A stretch of 64,000 nucleotides of DNA from an uncultured Nitrososphaeraceae archaeon (GTDB lineage Archaea; Thermoproteota; Nitrososphaeria; Nitrososphaerales; Nitrososphaeraceae), in the NCBI GenBank assembly GCA_963825865.1, contig CAWGVG010000062.1, positions 96,001 through 160,000 of the forward strand, written 5' to 3'. Positions 41,062-63,509 of the stretch are shown in pieces (position 1 is the stretch's first letter; the number at the start of each line of letters is the position of its first letter). The notes beneath the pieces were generated by a model. That model was not told the origin of the DNA, did no database searches, and worked only from the letters and a program-made list of their open reading frames with translations. The position numbers were made by a program, and so were the translations under genes.

Positions 41062-41916
41062 TTACCCGAATTTACCTGATATGTAACGCTCGGTTAGTTC
41101 TTTTTGAGGATTTTCAAATATTTGTTTCGTTGGCCCGTATTCGACTAATTCACCCAAATACATAAAAGCAGTACAGTCTGAAATTCTAGCTGCCTGCTGC
41201 ATATTATGTGTTACAGTAATTATAGTTAGTTCACTTTTCAATCTATACACAAGTTCCTCAATTTTCGAGGTTGCTAAAGGATCCAATGCTGAGGTCGGTT
41301 CATCCATGAGCAATACTTCAGGTTGCATTGCAAGTGCCCTTGCAATACACAGACGTTGTTGCTGACCTCCAGATAATCCCATTCCCGGTTTATCAAGTTC
41401 ATTTTTTACTTCATCCCATAAACCCGCACCTTCCAGACTTTCTCTAACTACATCGCTAATCAATTTCTTATCTCTTACGCCGTTAAGTTTCAACCCTGCT
41501 GCTACATTGTCGTAGATACTCATAGTAGGAAATGGATTTGGTTTTTGAAAAACCATACCAATACGTCTTTTTATAATTACAGGATCTATGCCTTTATCGT
41601 ATATATCGATATCATCAACAACAACATGGCCTTTTGCAGTAGCACCCGGAGTCATCTCATGCATACGATTTAAACAACGAATAAGTGTTGTTTTACCGCA
41701 TCCTGAAGGGCCTATAATTGCAGCTGAAGTATTTGGCTTTATGTCCAAATCTATACTCTTTAGTGCCTGTTTGGTCCCAAACCACGCGTCAAGGTTTCTG
41801 ATCGATACTTTGTATCGTTGCTCTTCTTCTTCTCCTCTAAGATCGCGATTATCGTCAAGAACCTTTTTTGAAGCCTTTTGCAAGGATATATCACGCAATT
41901 TGTTGTCTGTTGTCAA
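41062..41916 (-). CDS. pstB: Phosphate ABC transporter ATPase
   Basis: [32 protein letters not shown] and DEPTSALDP. Confidence 0.97.
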
Positions 41917-41981: not shown

Positions 41982-42924
41982 TTAGATGTGGGATGTTTTG
42001 ACGTTAAATCCCTTGCGTTGAGCAAGAAATTTTAGGATCGCACTTAACAATACGACAATAATCATAAGTATCAATGCTCGCTCCCCATCCTTGAGAATGA
42101 GCTGATTCATAGGGTTGTGAGGCTAATCTCCATATTCTTAGCGGTAGAGCGTCAATAGGCTTAGTAAAGCTTGTAAAGAACAAACTCGTACCAAGAATGG
42201 TCATAATTAAAGGCGCAGTTTCACCAGCGATCCTTGATATAGCCAGTACAATACCTGTAAGAACTCCACTTTTGGCACTTTTCATAACTATCGAGAACGT
42301 TACTCTAAATTTTGAGATTCCAAGCGAGTAACCAGCCTCTCGAAGTGAATTTGGCACTATTTTGATCGTTTCTTCAGTAATTCTCACTACGATCGGCATC
42401 ATGATTATCGAAAGGGAGAAAGCACCTGCCAAAACTGAAAATGAGCCTAGCGCAAGAACAATTGTTAGATATCCAACTATACCAATTACTACAGAAGGTA
42501 AGCCTGTAAGAACATCGTTGAATAATCTTACTGCAGTTGGAAGCAGCCCATTACTTGAAGCAAACTCCGATAAATATATCCCGGTAAGTACTCCTATTGG
42601 AACTGCAATTAACGATGCCAACCCAACAACAATCAATGTTCCTTGAATAGCAGGAGCAATACCACCTATTGCTGACCCTATAGCGCCTGGAGGTTGAATC
42701 AATAATTGTATGCTAATTGCCGAGCTGCCATTCTTTATTACCTCTAGTAATATACTGCCCAAAGGGATTATAGCAACTAAAACGCAAAGTATTGCAAAAC
42801 CACTTACGATTTTATCCATTAACCTGCGCTTATAGGACTGCCTTAAGATTATGTTCTGAATTTTCTGTTTCTTATTGTTATCATTACTATTGTTAGTACT
42901 GGAGTTTAATTCATTTCGATGCAT
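41982..42924 (-). CDS. pstA: Phosphate ABC transporter permease; an indel near 42075 moves the true stop to about 41982
   Basis: [17 protein letters not shown] and RIAGETAPL. Confidence 0.93.
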
Positions 42925-42928
42925 ATGT

Positions 42929-43935
42929 TTATTCTCTTCCTCCAGGACTAACCTTCACCATCCTAGAGACCAATATACGCGCGCCAATATTGATTCCCAT
43001 TGTTAAAATGAGCAGAACCGCTCCAAGACCAATTAAAGCTGAAAGTTGTAAATTTGACGATGCTTCGTTAAATTCGTTAGCAATTAAACTTGCCAATGAT
43101 TGACCTTGAGAAAATAACGAGTTAGGAATAGGAGCTATCCCTATGGTATTTCCAATGATCATTGTAACCAATATAGTTTCACCTACAGCTCTACCTAATC
43201 CCAGAATTGCAGCTCCTAATAATCCAGACTTCGCATACGGAAATATAGCTATTCTCACAGTCTCCCAGCGGGTTGCCCCTAAACTATACGCAGCTTCTCT
43301 CTGGGTATCTGGCACCGCCTTTATTACTTCGCGAGAAATTGATGACACAATCGGTATAATCATAATAGCCAAGACTATTCCAGCCGTGAAGACATCCAGG
43401 CCAAATGGAGTTGTACCAAAAAAAGGAATCGACCCTCCAAAAGCGTTGTACAAAGGCATTTCAATCAAATCTCTGACCCAGAATCTAAATACAAATAGCG
43501 CCCACAGACCGTAAATTATGCTTGGCACGGGCAGCTAGCAATTCTACAATAAAAGATAACGGTGTACTAACCCTTGCGGGTACCATTTCTGATAAAAAAA
43601 TGGCAATTCCAAGGCTTACTGGAACCCCTATTGCCATCGCTATAGCTGAGCTAACCAGAGTTCCAATAATATAGGGTAACGCACCGTAAGATTCACGACC
43701 TTCTACCGAATTCCAGTCATTACCAGTTAAAAATTTAAGAAAGCCTTCTTTTAAAAATATGTCTTTGGACCCATTTCCTACTGAAAAAGCTACAAGTCCA
43801 ACCATAAGTAAAGTATAACATGCCGCCCCGATTACTATGATGCGAAAGATTTTGTCTCCCCTTCGTTTTCCTTGACGAAGAAACGAAAAAGAGGAACTTT
43901 TCCTTCTCTGCTGCTTATCCGCTTGGCCGATGATA
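42929..43935 (-). CDS. pstC: Phosphate ABC transporter permease, frameshift near 43530 (start approximate)
   Basis: YGALPYIIGTL, PSIIYGLW and LGRAVGET. Confidence 0.92.
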
Positions 43936-44220
43936 CAAACACCTATTGTAAATAAAAGATGTGAATAAGTCGTTATATTACGCTTACATATAGTGATAAC
44001 ATAGATCACGTTAGTCTATATAGACAAACCTGGTAAAAGAACCGATTTCCACGCAACACCGCTCTTTTAACTGCTTGATAGTCAATTTACAATTTACATT
44101 TTTTTCATATTATATATATTAAATAATTAAATTATCATTTATACAAAAATCTTATCTCATAATAACTAAACTTTTTAGTAGAGTTAAAGTAATATAACAA
44201 AGACAATAATAATTTCTTCT

Positions 44221-44745
44221 ATGGAATTATTCATTCTTCGGCATGGTGAAGCAGGTAAAAGGGTCTCCTCTGGAAATAAAGACTCTGCAAGACCACTTAC
44301 AGTTACAGGTCAAAAAGAGGTTGCAGATATAGCAGCATCACTCAAAGACCTAGGTGTTAAATTTGATCTTATAATCACAAGTCCACTAAAACGAGCACAT
44401 CAAACTGCGGCAATAGTAGCCAAGAAGCTTCAAAATGAAAAGAAAATGGAAGATTGGGACGAATTAAAACCTGAAGTCAAACCGCTGGAGCTTTATCATA
44501 AATTATCCTCATCACCACAATTCAAACCACAATCGTCCGTACTTGTTGTAGGACATGAGCCTTATCTTAGTAAGATGATAAGTGAGATTATAGCTGATGC
44601 AAATGGCGATGGTGGTTCTGTCCACATAGCTCTCAAGAAAGCAGGACTGGCAAGAATTAGGGTAACTTCTAATTCTAATTCTAAGATGCAAGGCGAATTA
44701 AAATGGTTACTTACTCCAAGACATATGAAGAATATGTTAAAATGA
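44221..44745 (+). CDS. sixA: Phosphohistidine phosphatase SixA
   Basis: LRHGEA, RPLT, SPLKRAHQTA and VGHEP. Confidence 0.9.
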   Translation: MELFILRHGEAGKRVSSGNKDSARPLTVTGQKEVADIAASLKDLGVKFDLIITSPLKRAHQTAAIVAKKLQNEKKMEDWDELKPEVKPLELYHKLSSSPQFKPQSSVLVVGHEPYLSKMISEIIADANGDGGSVHIALKKAGLARIRVTSNSNSKMQGELKWLLTPRHMKNMLK

Positions 44746-44886
44746 ATTCTATATGAAGAATATAACAATAAGAATTCTATATGAAATACATATTAACAGA
44801 TTTAATAAAAGTATACGAATTATATAAAATGTCCTGACAAGTGAAATTAAAACTGCCTTTATTACTAACAGGAAGGGTAGCTCAAT

Positions 44887-46441
44887 TTGAAAGTATCAGT
44901 TGTAGACCTTGGCTTCAATTCTGTTAAATTAGTTAATTACTATGCGAACAAGGATAATTCCTACAATGCCTATGAGCAAGACAGCGTAAAAGTCAAACTT
45001 GGCGAAAAATTAAATGAGACTGGATGCCTTGGAAGCGAATCTATCCAGCGCACAATTAATTGTTTGAAATTGTTTCGGGATATAATTGGTTTTCAATCCA
45101 TAAAACACGTACTAGCCGTTGCTACGAGTGCGGTAAGAGAGGCAGGAAATAAAGAGGACTTCCTCAAAAAAGTCTATGAAGAGACAGGATTTCGATTTAG
45201 AGTATTATCTGGTAAAGAAGAAGCACTATACTCATATGCAGGTGCATTAAAGTCAACATGCATTCCAACTGCGCTTTTTTTTGATTTAGGTGGCGGAAGT
45301 CTGGAAATAGTATACACAGAAAATTACAGTATTAAGAAATTTATATCGTTACCACTAGGTGCATTAAGGCTATCACAAACTTATGGTAGAACTGATGGCA
45401 GTTTTACTAAGAAAAATTATTCTAGGATGAAATCATACATACTCGAAGTTCTTCCTACTAGAAAAGAACTTGACATGAGTCCTGATACCACAATTGTTGG
45501 TGTTGGTGGTACATTACGAGCCATCGCCCGGTACGATCAAGAAATCAGAAGCTACGCGCTCAACAAAATTCACAATTACAGGATGGATTACGAATCTATC
45601 GATTCAATTAATACAGGTTTTTGTAAAATGAGAGCAAATGATATAGCTAAGATTGATGCTATTGGTAACAACAGAGCAGAAGCTATCACTGCTGGTTCAT
45701 GTATTATCAATATGCTAATGCAGAAATTTCGATTCCAAAGGGTAATTATAAGTGCTAGAGGTTTAAGAGAAGGAATTATTTCAGCATTCTTGGAATCACC
45801 CAATACATACTGTACAGAAAATATCAACCAAGATCAAATTCAGAATTCTGTTATACTCTCTTGTAAACAGCCAATCGTTCAAAAGCCTATCTATGCTTTC
45901 ATAAATGCTTTGATTTCTATTGGCTTGGTTAAGGAACGGGAGTACGAAATCATAGTTCATGCGATAAAGCAACTGTCAAAAATGTCCCCCGCTAGCAATT
46001 TACACAATATGTTTTACATGATCATTGATGAAGACAGTTCGCACCTTAGTCACAGTGAGCAATTGGTTCTGGCTTTATCCATGATATATACACGAAAAAC
46101 AAAGACTGCAAATTCATTGTTTTCAAGATACAGATCAATATTGCAACCACAAAATAGGAAATCTATTGAAAAAATTGCAGACATGCATTAGCCTTTCAGA
46201 AATTCTAGGAAGAAATAATTCCAAAATCAAATTAACAGCACCCAATGGGATGAAAATTGTCATGAGTATTATACCAGGAAAAGAGAATCCACTGCCCATG
46301 ATTTTGTTAGAAAATGCATTAAAAAACTTTGAAATTGCCTTTGGCGTTTCAATTGATTATTCGATATCTGTTCTCAATCTAGAAAAGCAGCAACAACAAA
46401 ATCATGTTTATTTTACAATGCCTAAAGAAATAACCACCTAG
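44887..46441 (+). CDS. ppx: Ppx/GppA family exopolyphosphatase, frameshift near 46185
   Basis: VDLGFNS, ATSAVREAGN, SGKEEA, DLGGGSLE, LPLGALR and GLREG. Confidence 0.92.
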
Positions 46442-46714
46442 AAGAGCTAATTTTAGAAGATGAGAAAATATATCTCATTAAGGCATAAAAAAACTCGTTG
46501 TAATTGAGTGTGCTATGTTATCTCATAAATTTGGGGCTTCTGTCAAGTCTTCGTCGGATACTTGCTTTTTAATATCTCTTACTGGTAATTTTTTTCCTTG
46601 AAACTGTTCATATAAGCATGGCTGGTACTTATTAATCAACTCAAGTAATCTGTTTGTATTGGGTAACGATCAATTGACGTTATTGGTAGAGTGTTAGTTT
46701 GCATTCTCATATCA

Positions 46715-47470
46715 TCAGAATTGTTGTTTTTTGTTTGCTCGTTTGTTAGATGTCAACATAACTTTTTGTCTGAGAGATTGATGATATTGTTTAGGTGAAA
46801 GTATGTCTCTAATCTTTTGCCTAACTAATCGTTGTTGGTCTTCAATTCCAGTTGTACCGTCTATGACTGTAAAAGCTTCAGATTGAATCATAGAGTCATA
46901 CTGATCAATGATCCTGCTTTGAAAAATTCTATAACTATCGTAAGGGTCATTGCTTAAATTCAAATCCATGCCTGCCTCATAATACTTTAATTTAGGTCTA
47001 CCCATCATTATCCTTTCAATTGCAATATCAACTGGAACCCTAAAATAAAATACTATGTTAGGCTTTAATGCAAAATCATAAATATTGCGAACCAACTTAG
47101 GGCTGCAACCTCTGACTACATCTCTAGCATATGCAGTATACACATATCTATCAGCTAGTACAATATAACCAGCACGAAGTAGCGGGAAAATATTTCTTTC
47201 ATATCTATCTGCAAAATCAGTAGCATGTAAAAGACTAAATGTAGTTGGTGTGAGCCGACCCTTCTTCTTACCTTTCGATGTTATCTCTTTTACTATTTCA
47301 GAGGAATTCCATTCAGTCTTAAAAACTGGTAAACCTTCTGATAATAACCATTTATCAAGCAGATGAATCTGTGTTGATTTTCCAAATCCGTCTATCCCTT
47401 CTACTACAATAAGCTTACCTTTTACTTCAAGCTTTTTGTTATGCAGCATTGAGATACCTTCCTTCGTCAT
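46715..47470 (-). CDS. Thymidylate-kinase-fold protein 1 (intact P-loop); candidate polyphosphate kinase subunit
   Basis: VEGIDGFGKST, LHATDFADR, LADRY and YYEAGMD; convergent with ppx. Confidence 0.85.
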   Translation of the reverse strand: MTKEGISMLHNKKLEVKGKLIVVEGIDGFGKSTQIHLLDKWLLSEGLPVFKTEWNSSEIVKEITSKGKKKGRLTPTTFSLLHATDFADRYERNIFPLLRAGYIVLADRYVYTAYARDVVRGCSPKLVRNIYDFALKPNIVFYFRVPVDIAIERIMMGRPKLKYYEAGMDLNLSNDPYDSYRIFQSRIIDQYDSMIQSEAFTVIDGTTGIEDQQRLVRQKIRDILSPKQYHQSLRQKVMLTSNKRANKKQQF

Positions 47471-48202
47471 CCTGCTTCTGTCCTATATTCATCATTGCAT
47501 TTTATATTAATAATGGTTAGTGTGACAGAAATGGTATTATTAACTTATCAGAAGCAACTTGTTTTTTATTATTTACCCACGCTATCTTATTTCAATGTTT
47601 TTGTGTTTAAAGGCTCTATATAGAAATAATCTATATGAGATTGATAGTTTAAACACCATGCTGTATTGTATGAGGTTTGGGTTACAGGCTGTTCAATGAG
47701 TGATTTAAAAATAAAGGAAGCATTTACGTTACATTCAATGGTTTAACAATCAAGTAATGCTGTATTAAAAGCGGAGGGCTTTGTATCAGATGAAGGTTCT
47801 GAAGTTGAAAAGCGTTCCCCCTAAAGCCAGTCTACTGCAGCAACTGCAAGGAGGCTAATCTCAAAAATGCCAAGTGATGTTCAAAGTGCGACATGCACAA
47901 GACCATACAATCATGGAAGTGATGCAGCACTAGATAATAAAAACAAGCACATTTCGTGTGGGAAATCACCAGTAATCAATCATCTTTGAAGGTCACTGTC
48001 TTATTACAGCAAGATTTAGTCTTTTTATTCGCTCCATTATCCACACTATAATTTAATACCGCGTTCCAAATGTGACTTTAATATTTGACTAAATAGAAGA
48101 AGATTGTTGTTATTAAGAACATATGAAAAGAACAAGGAGAAGCGATGTGTCTAATAATAGGTTTTAGCTTACTGTTTAAGCAGTGTTTTGCCTTGGCGCC
48201 AG

Positions 48203-48553
48203 TTAGCGAGGACTATAATATATTATTACTACTCCTACTCGTACAATAAAGGATCCAATGATTTCATATCTGCCTGGCTTCTTTTTGTCTATCAATACTC
48301 CCCAGAGAATAGAGAAAACTATGAATATTCCACCATATGCTGCATAAGTTCGGTGGAAATGGGACGGTTGAAAAGTTGGATTTATCCCGTATACAAACAA
48401 TATAAAGCCGCCAATAATCATTAAAATCCAACTCATATCTTCTCTTAACCATAGCCAAACAAGATACCCACCACCGATTTCACACAGTTTTGCAAGAAAA
48501 AATAGGAATAAACTAATTGAAATATCCTTGATATTACTGTTCGATGGCGACAC
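48203..48553 (-). CDS. YnfA family (UPF0060) small membrane protein
   Basis: CEIGGGYLVWLWLR and RTYAAYGGIF. Confidence 0.88.
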   Translation of the reverse strand: MSPSNSNIKDISISLFLFFLAKLCEIGGGYLVWLWLREDMSWILMIIGGFILFVYGINPTFQPSHFHRTYAAYGGIFIVFSILWGVLIDKKKPGRYEIIGSFIVRVGVVIIYYSPR

Positions 48554-48980
48554 TAGTTGCGAAAGCCATTACTATAAAAATCTGACTAAGGCTTTGAATT
48601 CCAAACTACTCTTTGGTGAATTCCTTTGAATCCTCCAAAGTTATACTATTGAATGGAGTTATAGTTTTATTATTATTATTGGTTATTATTTAACTAATTT
48701 TTCCTCTTCTTTTTTTTGTTTTTCTATAGGCCTCCGGGGCTACGTTTTTCGTTTTTCCTTACCTCTCTTTGTAATTAATTTTCTTAATTTTGCGGTCTCT
48801 TTCATCAGCGTATCTGCATCATAACCATTAAAATCACAGAATTTTTTATCTTGAATTACTGGCAATTCTTCGCTGCTCCTGTAGTTCTTCTACCTCCTCT
48901 TCCTTTTGTTTCCATAATTACACTTACTTTACCTAATTTCCCTTGACAACTTAAATAGTTTCTTTTGTAAACAATAATAT

Positions 48981-49776
48981 ATGCGAGAACAGCAGATTAA
49001 AGAAAGGGTAAAAAAAAGATATGGCAAGATAGCGTTAACAGGTAATAATTCTGAATGTTGTTGTAAAGTGGTGTATCACAAGAAGAATGTGCTAGTGAAA
49101 ATGGTTAATCACCAATGCAATCTGTGAAAGTCTATTGGTTATGACACTACGGATATAGAATCCATTCCTGAAAGTTCCATACTTGGAGTCGGATGTGGTG
49201 CACCTACAAAATTTTCTGATATCAGACAAGGAGAAACTGTTGTAGATTTAGGTTCAGGAGCAGGAATTGACGTATTTTTGGCGGCTAATAGGGTTGGAGA
49301 GTCAGGCAAAGTAATCGGTATTGACATGACAGATGAAATGTTAGAAAAGGCAAGTAAAAATGCAAAGGATAATGACTATACGACAAATGTAGAATTTCGC
49401 AAAGGAGATATTGAAAAAAGAATTCCTGTTGAAGATAATACTGTGGATTTAGTTATAAGCAATTGTGTTATCAATTTGACTACTGATAAAGTAAACACGT
49501 TCAAAGAAATCTACAGAGTATTGAAAAACGATGGAGGTAGAATGATAATTTCGGATTTGGTTACTGAAGAGAGGTAAAGATAGAAATTCAGTTAATCCAG
49601 AAAAATGGTGTAGTTGTATTGATGGCGCATTAACAAAAGAGAATTACTTGCAGAGCATAAGATCTGCAGGATTTAAAAATGTAAACGTGCTGGAAGAAAA
49701 GTCATATATCGAACCCGATGCGGTAGATGGAGGAAGAAAAATTTCTAGTTTAATGATAAAAGCAGTCAAGGATTAA
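48981..49776 (+). CDS. arsM: Arsenite S-adenosylmethyltransferase, several indels
   Basis: YGKIA...CC, LGVGCGAP, VVDLGSGAGID, ISNCVINL and WCSCIDGA read across frames. Confidence 0.85.
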
Positions 49777-49801
49777 TGAAGGTTCATTATGAAGTTCTTA
49801 T

Positions 49802-50236
49802 TTGGTAGACAAATCAAACAAACAAGCTGAACAGGAGAAAGAAAAGACTGTTCTATTTGTATGTGTAGAAAACGCAGGAAGAAGCCAAATGGCAGAGGGT
49901 TTCTTTAGGAAATATGCCCCAAGAGGTTATTCAGCCATAAGTGCAGGAACAAAACCAGCAGGAGAAATCAACCCACTTGCCATACAAGTAATGAAAGAAC
50001 TTAGTATTGACATTAGCAAACAAAAGCCTAAGATAATTACGGAAGACATGATAAAAAATTCGACTGTGAGGGTAAATATGGGATGTATGGACAAGGAATC
50101 ATGCCCTACATTATTCATTCACAACGTGTAAATTGAATGGGGAATCGAAGATCCTAAAGGCAAGTCATTGGAGAAGATAAGAGAAATTAGAGATATTATT
50201 GAACAAAGGGTAAGGCAACTTGCCACAGTTGTGTAA
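49802..50236 (+). CDS. arsC: Arsenate reductase (thioredoxin-coupled, LMW-PTPase fold), frameshift near 50128
   Basis: LFVCVENAGRSQMAE, SAGT, MGC...CP and WGIEDP. Confidence 0.9.
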
Positions 50237-50917
50237 AGATAGCCCGCAGATTAAGTTCTAATCAAAAGAAGTTTATAGCCGAAGTTATTGGCACGTTTAT
50301 TATTCAGTTGTGTTTTCCACTGGCTCTGTAGTTATAGATGCTAAAGTAAATAGAAGATTAGGAGTTCCGTTTATTGCATTTGCTCCATTTGTAGGTGTTG
50401 CAACGACAGTTTATCTTTTTGGAAAAATCTCTATGGCTCAGTTCAATCCTGCTGTTACAGTCGGGTTTATGATTACAAAACATATTATTACAAGGATTCA
50501 ATTAGTATACTACTTTACGGCAGAGATAATAGGTGCATTATTTGGGAGTTTATTTGTAAAATATTTCATAGGTAATACAGCCAATTTAGGCGCTAATTCA
50601 CCAAATTATAGTTTTCCAATACCTGTAATTTTTGGAATTGAGGTTATAGCATCTGCTTTCCTCATGTCTGTGATCTTGATTGCTGTCTATATGAAGGGAC
50701 TAAAAGGTTTTGGCGGAATTGCAATAGGAGGAATAGTTGGTCTGGACATATTCTTCTTCTCATCTATCTCTGGTGCTTCAATGAATCCTGCTAGGTCATT
50801 GGCTCCTGCATTGCTTTCTGGATCTATGGAGGAATTTATGGCTTTACTGGTAGTGCAACTTTTGTTGGAACTTCAATTGTTGCATTAATATTCAGAAGAA
50901 AATTTGTTCATGTTTAA
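50234..50917 (+). CDS. Aquaporin/MIP channel (likely arsenite efflux), with indels
   Basis: FIAEVIGTF, FNPAVT and SGASMNPARS; directly after arsC. Confidence 0.85.
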
Positions 50918-51248
50918 CAAGTATCTTATTAATTTATCATAGTGTTTGTTCAGCGGATATCCCGTTTGAGTTTTTTAAATAACTCTTCTCCACATATCCA
51001 AGGAAACGGACCTAACATAATTAGCGACTAAAAGGCTTGTTATGGATAATACAATAGCCTTAAAGAATACAATATCAGCAAATGATGCCAACAAGGTTAT
51101 GTTATAGTAACACAGAATATAATTATTGAACATCATAGATCAACAATTTAATGCGTCTTTGATGTAATTCAATATAATGGTTTAAAATTATAGCAAGGTC
51201 CGCAATAAATCAAATATATTATAATAACAAAATGCTTGTTAGAATTTC

Positions 51249-51792
51249 ATGAAGAACAACACAACTTTAATAATCGTCGCAACAGCGATTATGATATCCG
51301 CATTTATGGTGACAGCAGTTGTATGGCATCAGCAACAAACGCAAGCCATGATGGAGTCTAAGAGTCGCTCCATATCATGTGTAGACAATCAGCCATGTCA
51401 TACTTCAAGTGAACAGATTCAAGTACACCTTCTCCAACACTAGCACCTTCTCCGGCATCAATATTAATGCCCCATTCATCAACATCAACATCTACACCTT
51501 CTCCAGCATCATCAAAATTACATCACCATAACTTCCATACTCTTCGACAATGACTACGAGCCACCCTTCAGCGTTGAATTCAACACAAGCACCTTCTCCA
51601 GCATCAATATTAATGCCCCATTCATCAACATCAACATCTACACCTTCTCCAGCATCATCAAAATTACATCACCATAACTTCCATCACTCGACAATGACTA
51701 CGAGCCACCCTTCAGCGTTGAATTCAACTGAGAGCCTATCCGACGATTATCGTTCTATAGCCAATGAGCTATCTAATTTAACGAGCAGCTGA
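51249..51792 (+). CDS. Secreted Ser/Thr/Pro/His-rich repeat protein, frameshifted
   Basis: Signal peptide plus CVDNQPC, followed by tandem repeat units. Confidence 0.55.
51442..51728 (+). repeat. Tandem duplication of about 144 bp (51442-51584 and 51588-51728)
   Basis: Near-identical units beginning AGCACCTTCTCC and ending GTTGAATTCAAC. Confidence 0.88.
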
Positions 51793-52012
51793 AACAACGA
51801 GCCTCTACAACTAGCTAAACATAGCAATGTAAGATAGCTTTCATATTTTTCATGTCTTGCATTCAATTTTCTAAATCCGTTATGTCATAAGTTGGCTCTT
51901 TCTCCAACACAACCCATATTGTGGTATTAGCGCGTCGTATGATTAATTTTTGTATAGTGATCCTCTTTTTTTTTATTTGGCTCTCAACTATGTCTATATA
52001 TGTATGATTCCA

Positions 52013-52536
52013 TCACTTGGTGTTACCAACCATAGCATTAGCTGTTAAAGTATCAGTAGCATTACTCAGAACAATTCTCTCTCCAAATGTCTGTCCGTTA
52101 TCGTTACTTGCTCTGAACGCTGGCTCTTTTATTCCATCCTTTTCATTTACTTCCCACCACGATACGTATACGTTACTTTCCTCTGCTCTTATTGATGGAT
52201 CGACTGAATCAAATTTAGTCGAATTGCTTAGATTAATTTTTGGACCAAATGTCTTGCCGTCATCGCTAGATGCTCTAAACATTATTTCAAAGTTTCCTCC
52301 AGTTTTATTACTTGACCAGGTTATGTAGACATTGTTTCCAGATGTAGATATGGGTGCCAAAAATAAAGGATACAACATTGCACAGCTTTTTGTACAGTAG
52401 CAGAGCCTGTTAATTGTGAAGGTAGTGGAGTCATAGCACCGTACACATTGGTCATTTGTAAAATTACTAAAAATAATGCCATGGATACAGATAGACTTAC
52501 GCTAACAATTATGGTTCTGTACCTTAACCTTAACAT
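52013..52536 (-). CDS. Secreted BNR/Asp-box (sialidase-like) repeat protein, frameshift near 52370
   Basis: Signal peptide; FRASSDDGKTFG and FRASNDNGQTFG Asp-boxes. Confidence 0.75.
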
Positions 52537-53849
52537 TTTCCTCCTATGCTGAGAAATAAGAGTTATAAGAGTTCATAAGTTGGTCTTGGATCACCTGTTA
52601 CTCATCCATTTGCTACGTTATAAGAGCTAGCCCCGTTAACCGGGGTTGCTCCATGTGTATGACCCAAAACAAGATTAATAACACCAGGCGTAGATGGATC
52701 AAAGGTAGTACCTGAAAAAATTATCGCTCATTGCATAGTGCTGAGCACAGTTCAATAACGCAGTCACAGTATTACGATCATAATAACCCATAACCTGCTT
52801 GAGGCGGTCAGGATCTCATCTAAATCCACATTGCTTTGGATTTGGAGATGTGTATTTTACGAACTTATCCATCAAGCCTCCATTAGTTGCATTCTGTCCT
52901 TCATAGAGACATATAGATTAGATACTTCTATATTGATATCAAGCTTTCATTTTCGATATGCCTTTCTTTTCCAAATTGCTTTCCAAAAGTGCGAGACAAT
53001 GGATGAAATGGCACAAAATTGGCAGTCTGAGTTTTCGCAAATAATAAGGAAAGTAGTAGGATTAGCAATATTACGATTCGTAGGAAGTCCAATATCTAAA
53101 GGAGATGAGAAACGATATGAAACAATATTTCGGAAAATATTGGAAAAACAACTAGAACCACAAGAAGCAGACAATTTCTAAAAGAACTGGAACAGAAATA
53201 TCCTAAAAGTTAGAGACGTGCACTTTAGCGGAGATGTGGATATAATAGATACAACATGCGAATTAGCACAAGTGGCGCATATAGCAATAACTGCAATTAT
53301 ATTGGCAAGAAAGAACAAGAAAGGTTAGTTGGTCAAAGAAACCAGCTAAAGTAAATAAACAAGACTGCAAAACAGTATAGATCTGTTTTTAGGATCATTG
53401 TTACGCATAATTGGTAAAAATTATTCCAAATTGCTATTCAGGGACAGCAGTAGCGGCATAAGAAGAAGCTAACAACAGGCTACCAAACATGGTTTTCCTG
53501 TTTGGTAATTGAAGTGAGGTAATTGCCCTATTCATTAAGATCAGCCAAGTCTCAGCTGTCTGGAAATTCTAATGTTTTTACTGTCAACTTTTAGGAAAGT
53601 ATGTCACAGAAACAGACGATAGACATAGTCGTGCCTCCTATCGAGGGAGGGATGAAAGAAAAGGCTATGCCAACGTATAAGCAAGTCTCTTGCTATCATA
53701 CACTAATTGGGAAAATCAGTTTGGAAATAGGATTAGCGAAGACAATGAAAATGTGGATTTTCGTTATTAGCGATCCTTTATATAAAAAACGGCTGCATCC
53801 ATTGTATATTCTAGACGAACAATGAAATGCATGGCGATATATTGCATTA

Positions 53850-54203
53850 TTACTGTAACTTTAGTCCTATAGCCCTATCAATTATTTTCGAATGATCAGC
53901 TTGTACCTCGGTTGTTATATACAAAACATGATTATCGTCCAACGGCATAGTAATGCGCTTAATCTTTTCATATTCAGCTAATACGTATTTTCCTTTTCCA
54001 ATCTTTGGTGCAAGTTGGCTACGCGTCTTCCAAGCGTTAATAGCCAGTTCAAGTGATTTTTTACTCTCTTCTGGTGTGAGCAAGTTCTTTACGCCTTGCC
54101 TATGTTCTGAATACATTATTTTGCCATTTAGATCACAGATTGTCACCAGTCTAATGTTTGGGTCACTGTTCATGATTTCTTCATAAATGCGTTTATAATC
54201 CAT
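53850..54203 (-). CDS. Thaumarchaeal roadblock/longin-like small protein
   Basis: IRLVTICDLNGK...IGKGKYVLAEYEKIKRITMP. Confidence 0.7.
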   Translation of the reverse strand: MDYKRIYEEIMNSDPNIRLVTICDLNGKIMYSEHRQGVKNLLTPEESKKSLELAINAWKTRSQLAPKIGKGKYVLAEYEKIKRITMPLDDNHVLYITTEVQADHSKIIDRAIGLKLQ

Positions 54204-54398
54204 TATCTAGGTATGTATGTAGCGAACTTAATAAGATTTTTCGAAAACGACTCAATAAACATGGCATCTTTTGCTTCTTGTTATGTTTGGTACTAAACCA
54301 TAATGCAAGCGATGTAAACCCAAGGATATGCAAATTATAACTTAACTAACTCTCATATCATAAACTACATGCCTAGAAAATATGCATAGCTAACTACA

Positions 54399-54931
54399 TC
54401 AATGTTTATTGCATCTTTCAATCGCCTTGGAGATACTTTTCTTTGCAACTTCTTTACCTTCCCATCTTATTACTTTGACATATTTTCCCTTTTCTAAGTC
54501 TTTGTGATGCTCGATGAAATGCTTGATCTGGTTGAGTATATGCTCTTCAATACTATCGATATCTCTAACAGTTGAAAAACTTGGATCTAATTTTGTATTA
54601 GGTACTGCAATGATCTTTGAATCCTGTCCTTCTTGGTCTTCAGTTAACAATATTCCAACTGGACGGGCACGAATCACCGACATTGGTATCTACAGGATCA
54701 TCTCCCAGTACGAATACATCTAAAGGATCTCCATCTTCTTCTTTAGTATTAGGAATAAAGCCGTAATTACAAGGATAAAACATTGCAGTGGATAATTTTC
54801 TATCTACAAATATTCTCTCCGCTTTCGACATCTATTTCATATTTGATGTTACTATCCTTTGGTATCTCTACTATAACATTAAATTCATCAGAACGATTTT
54901 TGTCTGAATTCAGTTTGTTTATGACAGTCAT
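54399..54931 (-). CDS. ppa: Inorganic pyrophosphatase (family I), two indels
   Basis: [30 protein letters not shown] and DSKII. Confidence 0.92.
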
Positions 54932-55253
54932 TTCTTATCAATAAAAGTCAAACACATATCTAAAATATATATTATATCCAAAAAAAGCTGTTATAAAGAA
55001 ATCCATATTATGGATACAGAACTGTGTGAAGTTATGAGGTACTTGTAGGATTTATTCAAAGATTCATTGAATGAATTTAGGGCTTAATATTTTGCTACTC
55101 AATTCTTGGGCACATCATTGTATTCCATTTAAATATCGCAGACAATTGGTCAGAGGAAACACAAAATCAGTCATCTAGAGATACCTGGAAAAATTCCACG
55201 ATCAAAATGATTTCCATCTCATACTCTCAATCGAGCTGCGTAGTATATACACA

Positions 55254-56082
55254 TCAGGCTAAGGACCAAATTTGATTTAAGAAATTCTCCTTAGGATTAG
55301 AGAGGTTACCCTTGCAAAATTGAATGAATTCTTCATATTTATGATTTCTTTCTTCAATTTCATCATCAAGAATATAATGAACTGCTCTTGGATTTCTAAT
55401 CCTTTTTAGATAGGCTATAGTAATATCTTCGTCATGTATTGATCCTAGCATATCTTGTATCTCTTCCAATTCGGTTATCATTCTTTGTATTTCCTTGTTT
55501 TGATCAGGCAGTAACTCCAACAAATACCTCAATTTTTTACAATCCTTTCTCATTTCGTGCAATTCTCCTACCTTTTTACTATTTGTAAGTACCGATTGGA
55601 AAATTTAGCTCTATTCTGTCGCTAAATCTACCTACTATATTTTTAAACCTCTGTTGTAATTTTTTCCCAGGTATGTCCTCTTCATCGATCTTGGGTGATT
55701 TATCTTTTAACGACAATGCAACATTCCTAGCTTTTCTAATTTTTGTATCTCTTCTTTTTTCTAAAGATCTGGTTAGTTCCGCATATATCGAATCTGAAGA
55801 ATATTTTTTTAACTTTCCGTAAATTATATCATAATCTCTAATTTGGCTATTTATTTTAAAAAGCCGTTTGCTTGCTGTAATGTAATTAGATACTCTAGTC
55901 CTTTTACGAACTTTCTTTGGTAATGATCTAAAGGAAGCATCCAGTTTTCTAATAGCTGTCCTAATGTCATGTATGTTATCCTCATTTGGATCAGCGAGGT
56001 AGTTATTGACTCTATTATCTACCTTTTGTATATTTTCTTGGAGTTTTGTTACAAAGGGTTTAGTAGAAATTGAGAATGTCAT
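55254..56082 (-). CDS. CHAD domain (polyphosphate-binding) protein, frameshift near 55590
   Basis: IHDIRTAIRKL, RDYDI, HEMRKDCKKLRYLLE and QDMLGSIHD. Confidence 0.9.
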
Positions 56083-56180
56083 AATAGTCTTTTGCAGGTG
56101 TTACCTATGTATATGTATTGGTCCACATTGATTTGTCTTCTTTCAACGAATAATTATTTTTACTCAGTTTTTGATTATCA

Positions 56181-56723
56181 TCATAACTTTGTTTGGAGAG
56201 TGGAGAATGTTGATGATAATCTGTTGTACATCTTAAGCAACATCTCTCGGCTCAATACCATTATTAATTTTCCTTTAGTATCAGAGTTTAGTGCTTCCCA
56301 TCGCCTAATAAATAAATTCACCTGTGATAAAGTACAAGTTTGCATCGACCGGACTTCTCCTGTCAACATCTCTATCAACTCTTCTAGGCCAGGATTATGT
56401 CCAACTACGAGTACTATTCTACAGTCATCGGAGATGCGACGCAAGACTTCCATATATGCTTCCGGGCCGGCCTGGTAAAAGGAACTGGTCAAAGTGATCT
56501 CCCCTTTGTAGCCACAGACCTTAGCGACGGCTTCCGCTGTGGAGAGAGCTCGCATTGCTGTGGAGCTTAGGATCATATCCGGGATCAGATTCTTGTATCG
56601 CAACAGTTTACCCATGTAAGGTGCATCACGTTTGCCGCGCTTATTGAGAGGACGGTCGTGGTCTACCAATTCGAGATGTTTCCAGCTTGACTTCGCATGG
56701 CGAAGGATGAGTAATGTTTTCAT
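56181..56723 (-). CDS. SixA-like histidine phosphatase, second copy
   Basis: LRHAKSSW, DHDRPLNKRG, SSTAMRA and VGHNP. Confidence 0.9.
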   Translation of the reverse strand: MKTLLILRHAKSSWKHLELVDHDRPLNKRGKRDAPYMGKLLRYKNLIPDMILSSTAMRALSTAEAVAKVCGYKGEITLTSSFYQAGPEAYMEVLRRISDDCRIVLVVGHNPGLEELIEMLTGEVRSMQTCTLSQVNLFIRRWEALNSDTKGKLIMVLSREMLLKMYNRLSSTFSTLQTKL

Positions 56724-56798
56724 CTACAATCTTTATATCACCTAGAATATAGTTTGCTCGTAAATTTTTCCTATATAGATAAACCTGCCTGTAGATCT

Positions 56799-57050
56799 CT
56801 AATTTGGTTTTGAATCTATTACTATTTCACAAATATCGTCCTTTGTTATAGTGATAAGGTAAATATTGTTACTGGAACACAAAGGGCAAGAATGAATATG
56901 GCATCTTCTATTTTGTTTTTCTGAGAACTTAAAAATGGTTGCATTCCAAAAACATGTTTCACAAATTACGAACTGGCAGTCAATATTGTCGTATGTCCAA
57001 CTTTGAACCAATGAAGAATTACTAGAAAAGGAAGAGGTAACAGAATGCAT
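56799..57050 (-). CDS. Small Cys-rich zinc-ribbon protein (CExCFW...CPxC family)
   Basis: QFVICETCFWNATIFK...CPLC. Confidence 0.7.
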   Translation of the reverse strand: MHSVTSSFSSNSSLVQSWTYDNIDCQFVICETCFWNATIFKFSEKQNRRCHIHSCPLCSSNNIYLITITKDDICEIVIDSKPN

Positions 57051-57734
57051 CTATTTACTTTATTTAAAAATGTGTATATACTCATTGTCGAATGTGATCT
57101 TATAGATATTCTTAATCTATATTGAGATAAGCTAGTACTATACCGATTATTATTAGGCTTCTAACAAAGGCAAAAATATGCTAACGATCATTCTTCTCAT
57201 ATTTTTATTAGGCTCATCTTGAATTTGCGTTTTACAGATTACTAGCTTAAATGTTCCTCGATAATGTCTTAGGATCTGCGTAAGAACCAATTTGGGGCTA
57301 TGGGTATGACAACATGAAAAAGGAGTCATCGTCATATTGGCTGAATTACATTATAAATGAGAAAATCGAATAATCGAAATTTTTGAACAAATACATTTTG
57401 AAATTCATGATTTATGGATAGGTGTCAAATAGTTGTTGGCTGATTTAACAGTCCATTTGTAGATATAATGGGAGTCCTACGAACTATCGCGAGACGCCAG
57501 TTTTTGAAGAATAAATTATATAGACTTAATATGGCTATCATTTTGAATCTAAGCACCCGTACTCTTATCCTGGGTCACGTATATCTCAAAAAATATGCTC
57601 AGAATTGGAAGCAAAAGAGATGCTCTCCTGGAAAACCACTTTATCTAATGTGTGATGCCTGAAAAGAAAAGAAGACGGATTGAAGAAATTATTATGTTTA
57701 TTTTTACTTTCATTACTGATAGAGCAATTGTCCG

Positions 57735-57962
57735 TTACTTTGTAGCATTGCCAGAGCTTGTCATGTTACCGCCACCGGAAGATGTGGTATTGACGCCACC
57801 ACCTGCTAGTGCGTTACTACCGCCACCAGCCATGCTTTGATTGCCCTGAGCCAATGCGGGAGTGGTTGGAAATAATCCTATAGCAACAGCTGCTGTTATC
57901 ACTAATGCGATTGTTGCAAAGGTAGCTATTGTTGTTTTTCTTCTATACATCATGGAAAACAT
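57735..57962 (-). CDS. Small secreted Gly-rich protein
   Basis: Signal peptide ending ALA-Q and GGG repeats. Confidence 0.6.
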   Translation of the reverse strand: MFSMMYRRKTTIATFATIALVITAAVAIGLFPTTPALAQGNQSMAGGGSNALAGGGVNTTSSGGGNMTSSGNATK

Positions 57963-58391
57963 AGTGGAAATCAGTAATATGCTACTGTATTAGAAGCTAA
58001 TCTAAGGAATGTATATAGTGGTATTGATATAACAGGAATCAAAATTATCTAAATATTTCCTTATCAGAAAATGGCACTTAAGTTAATTTTTTGATATATC
58101 AGTAGTTTTCGCATGGCGATGGCAAAATGGAAAGTGTAGCTGAACTAACAGAGAAGTTCATGCGCTATATAGCGGATTAAATGGATATAAATATATCTAA
58201 CTCATTTTCTGTTATCAGAAGCTTATCAAAAAATTATCTCTATTATTCTCTTGTTACGATTTTTGTATAGAGTTCCTTATTAAAATTTAATGATAAAGAA
58301 ATTAAGAAAAAACTGGTTTAAAAATAAATGTAATAGATAACCAATGATGTTTCTATCGTTGTCATCTGTCTATGATTAACCAAAAAAGAAG

Positions 58392-58635
58392 CGCATGTCT
58401 ACCATGTTAGTGATATCTCCATATGCAAAAGTAAACTTTGTTTACCACCAAATTACAGATCAGACATCTATACTGCGATGTCTGGGATGAATACATCTAT
58501 ACTGAAGATAACTGGAATCTGGGCAGAATCGGAGATCAGTCATTTGATGAAAAATCCGGCTTGCTTACGAAGATGTTGATTTTATCAGCAACAGAAATTT
58601 AGCAGATAAGCTCTTGTTGGATTCTTCAACTGGAT
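58392..58635 (+). pseudogene. Phosphoesterase (phospholipase C/acid phosphatase AcpA family) C-terminal remnant
   Basis: MLVISPYAKVNFVYHQITDQTSILR...EDNWNLGRIGDQSFD read across frames. Confidence 0.65.
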
Positions 58636-58810
58636 TGGAGATATTAATCTCAGACGTATTGAATACCTAAGGATTATACTCCATACTTAGAATATCTTTG
58701 GAGACAAAATTATGCTTTTATATCTAAAAGGTAATATGGCACTATATATCATATCTCTATATACCTCATTTAGATTAAAGTTCTATACAAGAGTATTTCT
58801 ACACACACAG

Positions 58811-59187
58811 ATGGCAGAAATTTCCTTTAACAGAGACAAATATATAGATTCACAAAATGACTTACAAAGCATATTTATAGAATCCTTACAATTTAACGAG
58901 AAACTATTTAGAGCATTCTCAGAAGCCTATTCAACATACATAAAGACAATTCTTTATACCAATAATCTTGTAAAAGGTTTACCAGAAACAGAAACGATTC
59001 TAAAAAGTAGAATAGGAAATATATTTGATGAAAGATTTAGAGAAAAAGATTTCGTTACTACCCTCGCGGATACTGTGGCAAGATATTCAGAATTGATCCA
59101 TCTGGACATGTTGGCCTAATAATGGGTCAGCATGCTCATAAGGAAATCTGGCCTAAGGTAGGTAGTTGGTTGAAAGATCGATTATAA
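58811..59187 (+). pseudogene. PHA synthase-like gene remnant with a large internal deletion
   Basis: A helical N-terminal part joined to SGHVGLIMGQHAHKEIWPKVGSWLKDRL*, typical of a class III PhaC C-terminus. Confidence 0.55.
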
Positions 59188-60248
59188 TTATTGCTTTAGT
59201 CAATCTTCGAATTCCATTTCTAATGCAAATCGTTCTTCAGTTACTGAGCCTCGCAACCTTCTGACTGATTTATTAGCTAATCTTTACAACTTGGGTTGTT
59301 CTGACAAACTATTGATGAGGCTCTATACAAATATAAATAAACCCTTCCTATTAAGGCCATCATCTTCGCAAAACATAGTAGTAGATATTTCTTTTAGTTT
59401 AGTGAAAGAAGCAAAGAAGAAAGAACGGTGGTATCAAATACCTAGTGAAGTTTAAATATTATTGTTTAGTTTATTCTAGCTATTCCGGGTTCTTTTGCTA
59501 TCTTTGTTCCCTCTATAGCCCCACGATAGAATTATTATCTATCAAAGTATCTTCCTCTTTTAGAAGTTTGCCATCATCTGACATTTCAAGAGTGAAGTTT
59601 CCAGTATTTTTTGAGTGACTCTTCAATTATCCTTGTTTGCCAAAGCTGTTAACCCAGGCATGCATGAAATCGTTGAAGGTTGATGGTGTGGCCCCATAGC
59701 AAGGCAGGGTACAATGTATATTTCTGAGGAGCTATTGGGGTTTCCAATCAACCTAAAGGTTGAAGTCTGCAAATTCAATCGGCCCATCTCAGAACAAAAG
59801 CCTATCGAAAATGAAATAAGAAGTATACTTAATGTCAATATAGGATCTAATGATCTACATATTTGCTGTTGATAATATTGGGTACTAGAAAAAATCCAAA
59901 AAAAATGATGAAGGCGATGTATTGTTAATTATTCTTTTTGAAATAGCAATAAGTCATGTCGAAAAATATCGCTACTGGCTAATTATATGTATGGCACGAA
60001 CGTTAAGAATTGATAGGATTGAGTCAAAACTAGCTACTGCTAAAAGCAGAGTATTATATAGATCCGAAGCATATTTAATAACGTCTTTTTCGTTTGATTA
60101 TACACGTCGGCTTGCTGCTACGCTAGATCTTTGTCAATAGATACTATAGATCTATAGATTTACCATACGATATCGAGTTAAAACAGTGGACTAAGGATTA
60201 TCATCGCGTTAGCTACAACTGCGAGATAAATCTAAGAGATATCAACAA

Positions 60249-60998
60249 ATGAGTAAAAAACAACAAAAACCACACTCAGAGATAAGACAAACCAATGCTC
60301 GACCACTGGAATATTATGGCCAAGGTATTCCTTATTTGCAGAATGCCGAAATCAAAGGCCGCCTAATCATTATAGAAGGACCTGATTCTTCAGGAAGAAG
60401 TACACAAGTTACAATGATAACTTCAAAACTGGAGGCAGATGGTCATGCTGTCTTGAACACCGGCCTCAGACGATCGGAACTTATAGGAGAGGGTATACTC
60501 GAGGCAAAAAGGAATTTTTGTACTGGAAAAAGGACATTGAGTTTATTTTATGCTCGCAGATTTTGCTGATCAGCTTGAAAATAAAATAATACCTGCTTTG
60601 CAGGCAGGCTATATTATACTTTCTGACAGATATATCTATACGCTATTGGCAAGAGACGCTGTCAGAAGGATAGGCAGAAGATGGTCCCATAATCTATTTG
60701 GTTTTGCCGTCAAGCCAGATCTAGTCTTTTATCTTGATGTAGATCCAACCGAGCTATAGACACAGGGTCTTGCAAAAGAAGTCATCATTAGATTATTACG
60801 AGTCCGGTGTAAGATTCTGGACTTTCAGAAGATATGTTAGAATCATTCTTGATATACCAACGAATGATTGCAAAGGAATTTCATAGAATGCAGAAACGAT
60901 ATGGTATTATGCCAATAAATGGAAATCGTCCTATTGCAGAAATCAACGCAGACTTGCAAAATAAAATCGATGCAATTTCTTCTGAGATGACGCACTAA
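60249..60998 (+). CDS. Thymidylate-kinase-fold protein 2 (degenerate P-loop), several indels; candidate non-catalytic partner subunit
   Basis: IEGPDSSGRSTQ (K to R), DFADQLE, LSDRYIYT and DYYESG. Confidence 0.82.
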
Positions 60999-61048
60999 CA
61001 ACAAAAAAGAAGCTTTAATCCTCCAAGCTCTAAAAGAGGGATAATAAA

Positions 61049-61408
61049 TCACACCCGGTTATCAGCTGGAAGTAGTTTGGCGGAGGTACTAGCCTGAAGT
61101 CCAGATAATACAGCACGAGCATCTTGTAGTGACAAGCTATAAATCGGTGGTCCTCTCTTCTGTTGGAGATTCTCCAGAAAGGCTCGAGTATTCGGTTCTA
61201 ATCCAGTATAAGGATATGTGCCTGGAGTAAATTGTGTGCCCAAACCATATGCTACTTGAGTATTGCTGTTAATCATAATGCTAGCCGCTAGAGTTATCAA
61301 AGATATAATAATTACGCCTCCAGACATAGATGTTGCAGACCATGGATTTGGGATTAGAGGAGTTACTTTGAAAGCTGAGTTTCTAACTTCAAGTATTTCG
61401 TCAGACAC
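61049..61408 (-). pseudogene. N-terminal fragment of a secreted lipase/esterase (alpha/beta hydrolase)
   Basis: LEPNTRAFLE...GPPIYSLSLQDARAVLSGLQ cap domain, then a stop. Confidence 0.5.
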
Positions 61409-61989
61409 AATCTAGTCACAGTTTTTGGATTGATTTATACCTAATTAGGTCAAATTCAAAACCACCATCAGCATATTCTTGTAGTTGTTCTTGCTGTTTA
61501 CATTGCTTAATTATTACACTTACAGTTCCAGCGCCTATTTGATTACCTTTGGCAATTTGATCTCTAGAAACTCCATTGAGCCATTGCTTAATGACCCGTC
61601 TTATTGTGCTCCCAATGATACTACGTATTAATTATATAACCCACACATAAAAATAGCGTGTATTGATCAATACTTGAATAATCAGATGAAAATATCAGAG
61701 TTGGCCGAATGAATGAATCGGTCTAGGCGAGCACAAAAGCTATCTGACGGCTATCTGACCAATAGGATTACAATAAATTCAAAACATGAAGCCAAGAAAC
61801 ATTATCTGTTAACAACCATTCTTTACATCCCACTTTAATATTCTGCTTCCTCAAATCGAAATATACATGATAATTTTTTATGGATAAAATGTTCTATGTG
61901 AAGCTTTTTATGACATAATCCTCGCGGATCAATCTGTCCAACCAATGGCGTCTACCCACCAAAGCCAATATTACTTGCAATTAGTGTAT

Positions 61990-62095
61990 TTCACTCAGGC
62001 TAGGATTCCTACAATAACATCCTCACTTCCAAAAGGAGTACGTTACATGGCAGCTGATTCTGGATATGACAACTACTAACTATATGATTTGTGCA
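61990..62095 (+). pseudogene. DDE transposase fragment
   Basis: TITSSLPKGVRYMAADSGYD motif followed by a stop. Confidence 0.4.
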
Positions 62096-62419
62096 TATGT
62101 ATATTGGTGTCTAGCTTTCACTTGCGATAAGTATTTCTTTTGCGGGGTCAAATTGTAAAGTGACAGCCACTCTGGGTTGATGGTAATCCGGATAGAGACT
62201 CTTCCAAATTCTTCCTCAAGGATGCCATCAACATTCTACCTTCATCTTCGACAACTAGATACTGTCTATATAATTTGGCATCATTAAAAAATTAGGGAAT
62301 AATCGGGGTGCAAGTTTATAGGGCACCAATTAAATGGCTATATAGTCTATATAGTGCGTATAGATTTATATGATCATATTTCACAATGTATATATTTACT
62401 CTAGGTCGCTATAGATTTA

Positions 62420-63509
62420 TTGAGTTCTGTCTCAGGCAGTGGTGAAGTACGTAAAATACAATTCACAGGTAGATCAACATACATCATATCCTTGCCGAAA
62501 AGATGGATGGAGGAAATGCATCTAAAGTCTGGAGATCCAGTCGATATTGTTCGTGAGGCGAACAATACCTTGTCTATAATGCATCATAACGAGAGGACCT
62601 CTAATTTAGTTAATGAAGCAACTGCAATAGTATTATATGATGATAGTGTTGATTCTCTCAAGCGTAAAATAATATCAGTATATCTCGCTGGTTATAATAT
62701 CATGCATTTAAAATCAAAAACTGGACGAATAAATCCTGCTCAGCGTGATGCAGTTAGAGAAGTTGTTCGCAGGAATTTGGTAGGAACAGAAATAATAGCT
62801 GATTCATCAGATGAAATTACTATTCAGGTGTTGCTCACTCTCCCAGAACTTTCAGTCAATACTGCAGTTCGAAGAATGTTTTTGATTGCATCTTCTATGC
62901 ATAAAGATGCCATGAGTTCATTAGCAGAACTAAACCACGAATTAGCAAAAGAAGTATTAAAATCAGACGACGAAGTAGATAGATTCAGTCTTTACATTTT
63001 AAGAAACCTTGTTATGGCAACACAGAATGAGAGATATACTTCGAGAAATAGGATTAAAGAGTCCAGCTGACTGTTTGAGTTATCGTGTTGCAGTAAAAAG
63101 CATAGAACGGATAGCAGACCATTCATATGGAATTGCTGATAAATGTTTAAAGATAAAAGAAAAAATACCAAAAGATGTCTACCAGAAAATAGAAAAAATG
63201 AGTATTCTATCGTTGGGCGCCCTTAGTGATTCGGTAGAAGCATTCTTACGAAGAGATTATGTTATGGCAGATAGCGTTGTAAATAAAGCAAAAAGTATAC
63301 GTTCATTAGAAAATGATATAATCGCATTTATAAACAAAGAAGAAGATAAGACCATTCGCATTGAACCCGTTAACACGGATATCAGGCTGATTTTGGAGGA
63401 TATACGAAGAACAGCCGAACATGCAAGCGACATTGCAGAAGCGGCAATGAATCAGACGATAGGAGAAGTTATTACAGTGGAGAAGCGACATATTAGTTAT
63501 GCCTTATAA
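62420..63509 (+). CDS. AbrB-PhoU phosphate uptake regulator, frameshift near 63030
   Basis: RKIQFTGRSTYIISLPKRW AbrB-type domain followed by two PhoU repeats (DDEVDR, IERIADH, RRTAEHASDIAE). Confidence 0.9.

Follow-up and report, generated by a model that had tools for sequence, protein, structure and literature searches.

Whether two paralogous genes with a thymidylate (dTMP) kinase fold together encode a polyphosphate (polyP) kinase is the question raised by a 64,000-nucleotide stretch of DNA from an uncultured Nitrososphaeraceae archaeon (GenBank assembly GCA_963825865.1, contig CAWGVG010000062.1, positions 96,001–160,000; G000:C62:96001-160000 in our numbering of genomes and contigs), the whole of which is referred to here as the window. 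The original prediction, made from the sequence alone, assigned these genes, TMK1 and TMK2, to the catalytic and the regulatory subunit of such a kinase, on the model of an enzyme of Sulfolobus acidocaldarius, PPK3, with two subunits annotated as dTMP kinases. This background is correct. In the published description (PMC12995831, JBC 2026), PPK3 is a heteromeric polyphosphate kinase formed by two former dTMP kinases, Saci_2019 (cPPK3) and Saci_2020 (rPPK3), whose operon also encodes SixA, PPX and CHAD; it is an α2β2 tetramer that transfers phosphate reversibly between polyP and ADP/ATP, with ATP formation from polyP being favoured. Members of the family occur mostly in Nitrososphaeraceae and Sulfolobaceae, and with the former already on record among its principal carriers (PMC12995831), the prediction has a published precedent. 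What the window most probably encodes is a PPK3 (family-3 polyphosphate kinase) belonging to an ammonia-oxidizing Nitrososphaeraceae archaeon of soil, with TMK1 corresponding to cPPK3 and TMK2 to rPPK3, and the locus is a further member of the published family, not a new system.

TMK1 (46715–47470, minus strand) is an intact open reading frame (ORF) of 251 amino acids, carrying the predicted P-loop GIDGFGKST as its Walker A motif and DRY as its DRX motif. It matches the Pfam Thymidylate_kin model at 76.5 bits. Closest among structures in the Protein Data Bank is the 2plr/5h70 chain (E-value of 2.4e-59, 204 bits over 207 residues), named as the S. tokodaii cPPK3 homologue STK_15430 (PMC12995831), with a canonical Tmk following at 46 bits. 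The motif GxDGxGKS is present in all 32 c-type sequences, and invariant in a 20-row alignment of these are K31 (the Walker lysine), K68, K69, K70, R89, R108 (the DRX arginine), R116, R120, R153 and K162. TMK1 thus combines the intact P-loop, the DRX arginine and the conserved positive residues, candidate polyP contacts, that mark a cPPK3; the stretch of the r-type sequences that aligns with K68–K70 is not invariant.

Assignment of both genes to the PPK3 family is supported by the phylogeny. A careful IQ-TREE analysis was made of 32 of 73 aligned rows and a quick tree of all 73; outside the careful tree were 41 rows, mostly near-duplicates from the window's own family (f1), together with the tmk on contig C3 of the source genome and the long rows L051 and L053. 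In the careful tree the PPK3 clade is separated from canonical Tmk with a support of 100/100, and splits into a c clade (97/94), joining f1 and its sister family (f2) with a third family that has c–r pairs (f20), and an r clade (98/93). TMK1 belongs to a nine-row f1/f2 c set (98/95); the read-through of TMK2, described below, belongs to the r set (98/98). The same topology is seen in the quick tree, which gives the PPK3 clade an SH-aLRT support of 100 and the C3 tmk an end branch of 9.07. An intact rPPK3 of a relative likewise matches the 2plr/5h70 chain best (131 bits, with the next match at 50 bits). Among 151 sampled genomes of the phylum, c and r pairs were found only in f1, f2 (3 of 19 genomes) and f20 (5 of 5), and the other matching genomes have one canonical-type match each, save one genome with two. 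As judged from these sequences, TMK1 and TMK2 are orthologues of the cPPK3/rPPK3 pair, so that the source genome encodes both paralogue types, the r-type copy being frame-broken and keeping a stop at codon 170.

Relatives share the genomic setting as well as the sequences. A c orthologue is encoded in 43 of 60 related genomes of the family (G001–G060), and in 36 of these 43 its immediate neighbour, in the same orientation, is r; this count and that of PPK2 given below (34 of 43) include the unpublished G034, which has adjacent c and r and a PPK2, and become 35 of 42 and 33 of 42 without it. The operons of these genomes resemble the window in motifs and neighbours, with identities of 67–81% for c and about 72–80% for r. 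Of the 19 loci examined, 15 have PPX no more than 10 kb away, and the order SixA–PPX–c–r in all five f20 loci is that published for saci_2017–2020 (PMC12995831). A lack of ppx and CHAD linkage in other genomes had been named as grounds for giving up the prediction; linkage to PPX, SixA and CHAD is instead conserved in relatives.

The source genome (62 contigs, 4.98 Mb, about 35% GC, 81.76% complete) also contains a separate housekeeping tmk, a point that the prediction had proposed to check. Located at C3:51239-51775, it matches the full PF02223 model at 107 bits and TIGR00041 at 103.4 bits; its canonical status is based on these profile matches and on the quick tree. Tree, structural match, synteny and the separate tmk together support the predicted roles of TMK1 as catalytic and TMK2 as regulatory subunit.

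A complex predicted for the cPPK3 of the window and, in place of its own r subunit, the rPPK3 of G052 scored 0.66, compared with 0.00 for the best control, a pass that likeness to solved Tmk dimers may explain; among solved complexes 58 of 80 reach the mark applied, as do 2 of 110 mismatched pairs. Contacts agree between runs to at least 93%, and the pLDDT of the partners is at least 84. The modelled interface is helical and comprises c residues 59–92 and 121–133, which is probably the Tmk dimer face. The model supports binding of c to r and is not proof of it.

By analogy with the S. acidocaldarius enzyme, c and r would form a heteromer that moves phosphate reversibly between polyP and ADP/ATP, favouring formation of ATP from polyP. 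The pair lies in a phosphate module that includes the exopolyphosphatase PPX, two SixA-type phosphatases, a CHAD protein, a pyrophosphatase, PhoU regulators and the transporter encoded by pst. Within it, PPX would degrade polyP, CHAD would bind it, and pst and PhoU would supply and regulate phosphate. The ancestral gene order is likely to have been SixA–PPX–cPPK3–rPPK3(–CHAD), broken up in this genome. Read in this way, the sequence confirms a PPK3 system in a widespread soil ammonia oxidizer, and the points of note are the distinct degenerate motif of r, how commonly PPK2 coexists with the pair, the separation of the c and r genes and an assembly of poor indel quality.

Compared with the S. 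acidocaldarius enzyme, the locus has the same two dTMP kinase-fold paralogues, of which one is degenerate and the other keeps its P-loop and DRX motif intact, the same partners (SixA, PPX and CHAD), a separate canonical tmk, and common c and r clades. It differs in that c and r, which overlap in one operon there, are here separated by 13 kb and lie on different strands, in the presence of a PPK2 in this genome, and in r itself, which has an N-terminal extension of about 45 amino acids and combines a retained DRX arginine with a Walker A lysine-to-arginine change, whereas in the f20 type the DRX arginine is changed to glycine and the lysine is mostly kept. Canonical Tmk was rejected as a family for the pair: its models (TIGR00041 and PF02223) match both genes, TIGR00041 being only marginally passed by TMK1, but the tree sets the two apart and their genomic context is that of polyP rather than nucleotide metabolism. 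Also rejected was PPK2 (PF03976), likewise a P-loop kinase acting on polyP, as its model is matched at E ≤ 0.01 by neither TMK1 nor any piece of TMK2.

Several observations weigh against this assignment. The c and r genes do not form one operon here, whereas all predicted operons in the published account encode both (PMC12995831). Function is assigned through homology to the f20 pairs at identities of 43–49% for c and 25–30% for r, and the score of the predicted complex may reflect solved Tmk homodimers already known to the predictor. The r of f1 and f2 keeps the DRX arginine that is said to be replaced in rPPK3s (PMC12995831), and one stop, a TAG at 60757–60759 (codon 170), where relatives have M, V or I, is left in TMK2 after correction of its indels. 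A PPK2 is encoded in the same genome, on contig C2. Finally, the NCBIfam equivalog model for dTMP kinase, TIGR00041, gives cPPK3 84.1 bits, above its cut-off of 83.25.

The retained arginine bears on the nature of the regulatory subunit. In the published family, the DRX arginine of rPPK3s is replaced, as stated in the main text (PMC12995831); the window r departs from this feature, and the r of f1 and f2 may therefore differ in kind from the dead subunit described there. Walker A reads Gly-Arg-Ser in all 25 f1/f2 r sequences in which it is readable (one truncated row lacks it), and the DRX motif is D-R-Y in 24 of 26 such rows and in the window copy, with no motif found in one row. The f20 r sequences have D-G-Y in five of five, and four of the five keep the Walker lysine.

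These patterns would be explained if the Nitrososphaerales r were not inert, binding nucleotide or polyP as a sensor or as a second active site, and the enzyme differed in this respect from that of S. acidocaldarius. Walker A lysine-to-arginine changes, however, usually cripple phosphoryl transfer, r lacks conservation of the lysine run K68–K70, which never varies in c, and the r sequences form one clade with those of the inactive Sulfolobus type; we therefore regard an active r as rather unlikely. Equally tentative is the broader proposal that the Nitrososphaerales r turned regulatory by a route other than that of the Sulfolobaceae, through loss of the Walker lysine with the DRX arginine kept, that it may sense energy charge or be a slow second site, and that the pair tolerates unlinking (13 kb here and 200 kb in G038), usually in the company of PPK2. 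If true, this would suggest that soil ammonia oxidizers divide the work between two polyP-dependent kinases. The rule of a replaced DRX arginine fails for the Nitrososphaerales branch, which bears on annotation rules and on targets for mutagenesis. Both the GRS/DRY pattern of the Nitrososphaeraceae r and the co-occurrence of PPK3 with PPK2 may already be contained in the supplement of the published study (PMC12995831).

The degenerate P-loop GPDSSGRST that had been noted for TMK2 is present at 60249–60998 on the plus strand, with a DRX motif of DRY; the single gene of that length that had been assumed is not present as one ORF. The coding sequence is divided into the pieces 60249–60569, 60550–60759, about 60760–60830 and 60834–60998, in frames 0, 1, 2 and 0, with breaks at about 60555, 60759, 60812 and 60973. 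Read at face value, the four breaks and the in-frame TAG describe a true pseudogene, decayed after the operon was split, its role taken over by PPK2 or, weakly, by cPPK3 alone; the unlinking of r from c, the PPK2 in the genome and the survival of the codon-170 stop after the listed indels are all in keeping with decay.

Independent sequences point the other way. Parts of the region 54000–61200 are contained in 20 public runs from nine studies of soil and rhizosphere metagenomes, and contigs were compared over 44000–63600 from four runs, each of an independent soil metagenome study (X1, X2, X3 and X6); the RNA runs X19 and X20 cover only small shares (0.09 and 0.06). An extra base of the window is missing from the independent contigs at 60555, 60812 and 60973 in all four runs and at 60759 in three of the four, and the sites of these extra bases are those at which the window changes frame. 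The contigs also have a compensating pair of indels at 60519/60523. Applying the six listed indels yields a read-through of 245 codons that aligns end to end, including the C terminus, with the intact rPPK3 of relatives, at 78–80% identity over the whole length. The codon-170 site is not among the 40 contig substitutions listed of 516. All inserted bases in TMK2 lie outside homopolymers.

Frame breaks are also widespread in this assembly. Among ORFs of relatives of at least 200 amino acids, 31 of 89 matched G000 in two or more frames (top match with an identity of 50% or more and a coverage of 60% or more), on many contigs, as compared with 0 of 74 in a control of relatives against relatives; the 31 are queries, several of which share one G000 gene. 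As the breaks are genome-wide, affecting also pstS, pstC, PPX and PPK2, assembly error fits them better than decay. The frame breaks of rPPK3 are very likely indel errors of the assembly in a gene that is intact in nature, and decay of rPPK3 is quite improbable; the breaks that split CHAD, ppa, PhoU and the tail of PPX most probably arose in the same way. The apparent pseudogenes of the window are thus most likely a matter of assembly quality, not biology.

Contigs of G000 on which such breaks were seen include C22, C45, C2, C15, C46, C21, C14, C26, C23 and C62. Stop-to-stop ORFs of at least 150 amino acids cover only 48% of the genome; shares in related low-GC genomes are also low (0.30–0.58).

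That both genes are instead ordinary dTMP kinase paralogues without polyP activity, as their Pfam Thymidylate_kin matches and the passing TIGR00041 score of TMK1 would suggest, is very improbable in view of the better canonical tmk on C3, the placement of both genes in the PPK3 clade with f20 pairs of the published operon layout, their conserved linkage to PPX, SixA and CHAD, and the Sulfolobus pair itself, for which no dTMP kinase role is reported, that activity being reported for a third paralogue (PMC12995831). The TIGR00041 score has a practical consequence: being above the cut-off, it would lead annotation pipelines to label the catalytic subunit of what we read as a PPK3 as a dTMP kinase. 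The r of a relative remains below the cut-off at 80.8 bits, and no PPK3 model is among the NCBIfam matches of the window cPPK3.

The prediction had also argued from the lack of other polyP kinases. Neither PPK1 nor PPK2 is present in the window, as claimed; the argument fails at the level of the genome, as a PPK2 is encoded at G000:C2:45711-46509 (217 bits, in two frames that split near 45860). With a housekeeping tmk and a PPK2 both present, PPK3 is not the sole candidate for a polyP kinase. PPK2 was found in 39 of the 60 family genomes and in 34 of the 43 that have cPPK3, so the polyP physiology of these archaea is not readable from PPK3 alone. No PPK1 (PF02503) was found in the source genome, the completeness of which, 81.76%, leaves its absence not established. 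A CYTH gene that had been placed near the pair is not borne out: PF01928 has no match at E ≤ 0.001 in the 4.98 Mb of this incomplete genome, and the gene downstream of rPPK3 encodes an AbrB–PhoU protein. In the complete related genome G001, a PPK2 match (C1:1770500-1771177) contains one internal TAG and one TAA, and this copy may be a pseudogene.

The distance between the subunit genes, predicted as about 13 kb, is 12.8 kb, and with the genes on opposite strands the single operon of the published system is absent from the window, placing this genome among the few split cases. Also apart are c and r in G013 (3.3 kb), G038 (200 kb) and G059 (on another contig). In four of the 43 genomes r was not found with the query used; c lies at a contig edge in two of these, and only a partial c is present in a third. 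In the window cPPK3 faces the end of PPX, and between c and r are genes for YnfA, an ArsM-like and an ArsC-type protein and a MIP channel, ORFs of unknown function, ppa, CHAD and the second SixA. The borders of this 13-kb stretch have no convincing inverted or direct repeats, with none at 46.5 or 60.2 kb; the best repeat arms are of 18–29 nt with 72–88% complementarity.

Other arrangements were seen in relatives. Locus L028 (G013:C52, 8469–19738) holds rPPK3, SixA, PPX, cPPK3, CHAD, PPK2 and AbrB–PhoU within one 11-kb stretch, so that PPK2 and PPK3 are neighbours there. In L034/L035 (G038:C10), cPPK3 stands alone, 200 kb off, and rPPK3 remains with CHAD, PPX, SixA and pst. The X6 contigs diverge from the window around 61088–61120 and, over 616 unlike letters, leftwards of 46513; a related strain may have another arrangement downstream of cPPK3 and rPPK3. 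The contig joints and loose ends have short sides of 25–42 letters, and differences in arrangement between strains are only hinted at by them.

The neighbourhood of PPX, SixA, CHAD and Pst genes that characterizes PPK3 loci is present in the window, and the neighbours named in the prediction (ppx, two sixA, CHAD, ppa and pst/phoU) were recovered with Pfam and by tblastn placement of the genes of the relative locus L032 on C62 (contig coordinates minus 96000). At the left are the L032-placed transport genes: pstS (about 39008–40073, plus strand, over two frames), and, all on the minus strand, phoU (40372–41010), pstB (41065–41811), pstA (42073–42870) and pstC (42932–43928, over two frames). Pfam matches of this L032 gene set are PBP_like_2, ABC_tran, PhoU and two of BPD_transp_1. 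The first SixA-type histidine phosphatase (44221–44745, plus strand; His_Phos_1, 52.6 bits) adjoins PPX, as it does in relatives and in all five f20 loci.

PPX (44887–46441, plus strand) consists of an ORF of 434 amino acids (44887–46191; Ppx-GppA, 187 bits) and a C-terminal tail in another frame (46166–46372). Proteins of relatives (458–519 amino acids) match frame 1 up to 46179, and residues 426–495 of the G054 PPX match frame 2. Inorganic pyrophosphatase (ppa; 54399–54831, minus strand) is likewise in two frames (54399–54683 and 54640–54831), which match the Pyrophosphatase model at 80.6 and 59.8 bits over profile positions 66–152 and 18–64. The CHAD-domain protein (55254–56100, minus strand; 30.7 and 42.3 bits) has its break near 55594–55604, and the intact orthologue of 287 amino acids in G013 matches 56100–55594 and 55601–55257 in different frames. 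The second SixA-type phosphatase is at 56181–56723 on the minus strand (His_Phos_1, 34.3 bits). Downstream of rPPK3 is the AbrB/MazE–PhoU phosphate regulator (62420–63509, plus strand, two frames), the intact G013 orthologue of which (364 amino acids; PhoU 77 bits, MazE_antitoxin 40.9 bits) matches 62429–63034 and 63036–63488. A scan of 43000–64000 against Rfam at gathering thresholds gave no matches.

Unrelated to polyP is the set of genes at 48203–50888, between cPPK3 and ppa/CHAD, assigned with Pfam: YnfA/UPF0060 (48203–48553, minus strand) and, on the plus strand, an arsenic-type set comprising an ArsM-like methyltransferase piece (49278–49577), an LMWP/ArsC-type phosphatase (49802–50131) and a MIP channel (50310–50888). 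Position 48532 is joined to 50992 in contigs of three of the four metagenome runs, with sides of only 42 letters, so the arsenic-type block may vary between strains. Further on is a low-complexity ORF rich in Ser, Thr, Pro and His (51550–51792), which overlaps a tandem duplication at 51435–51728 (period of about 146 nt, two copies, 98–100% identity).

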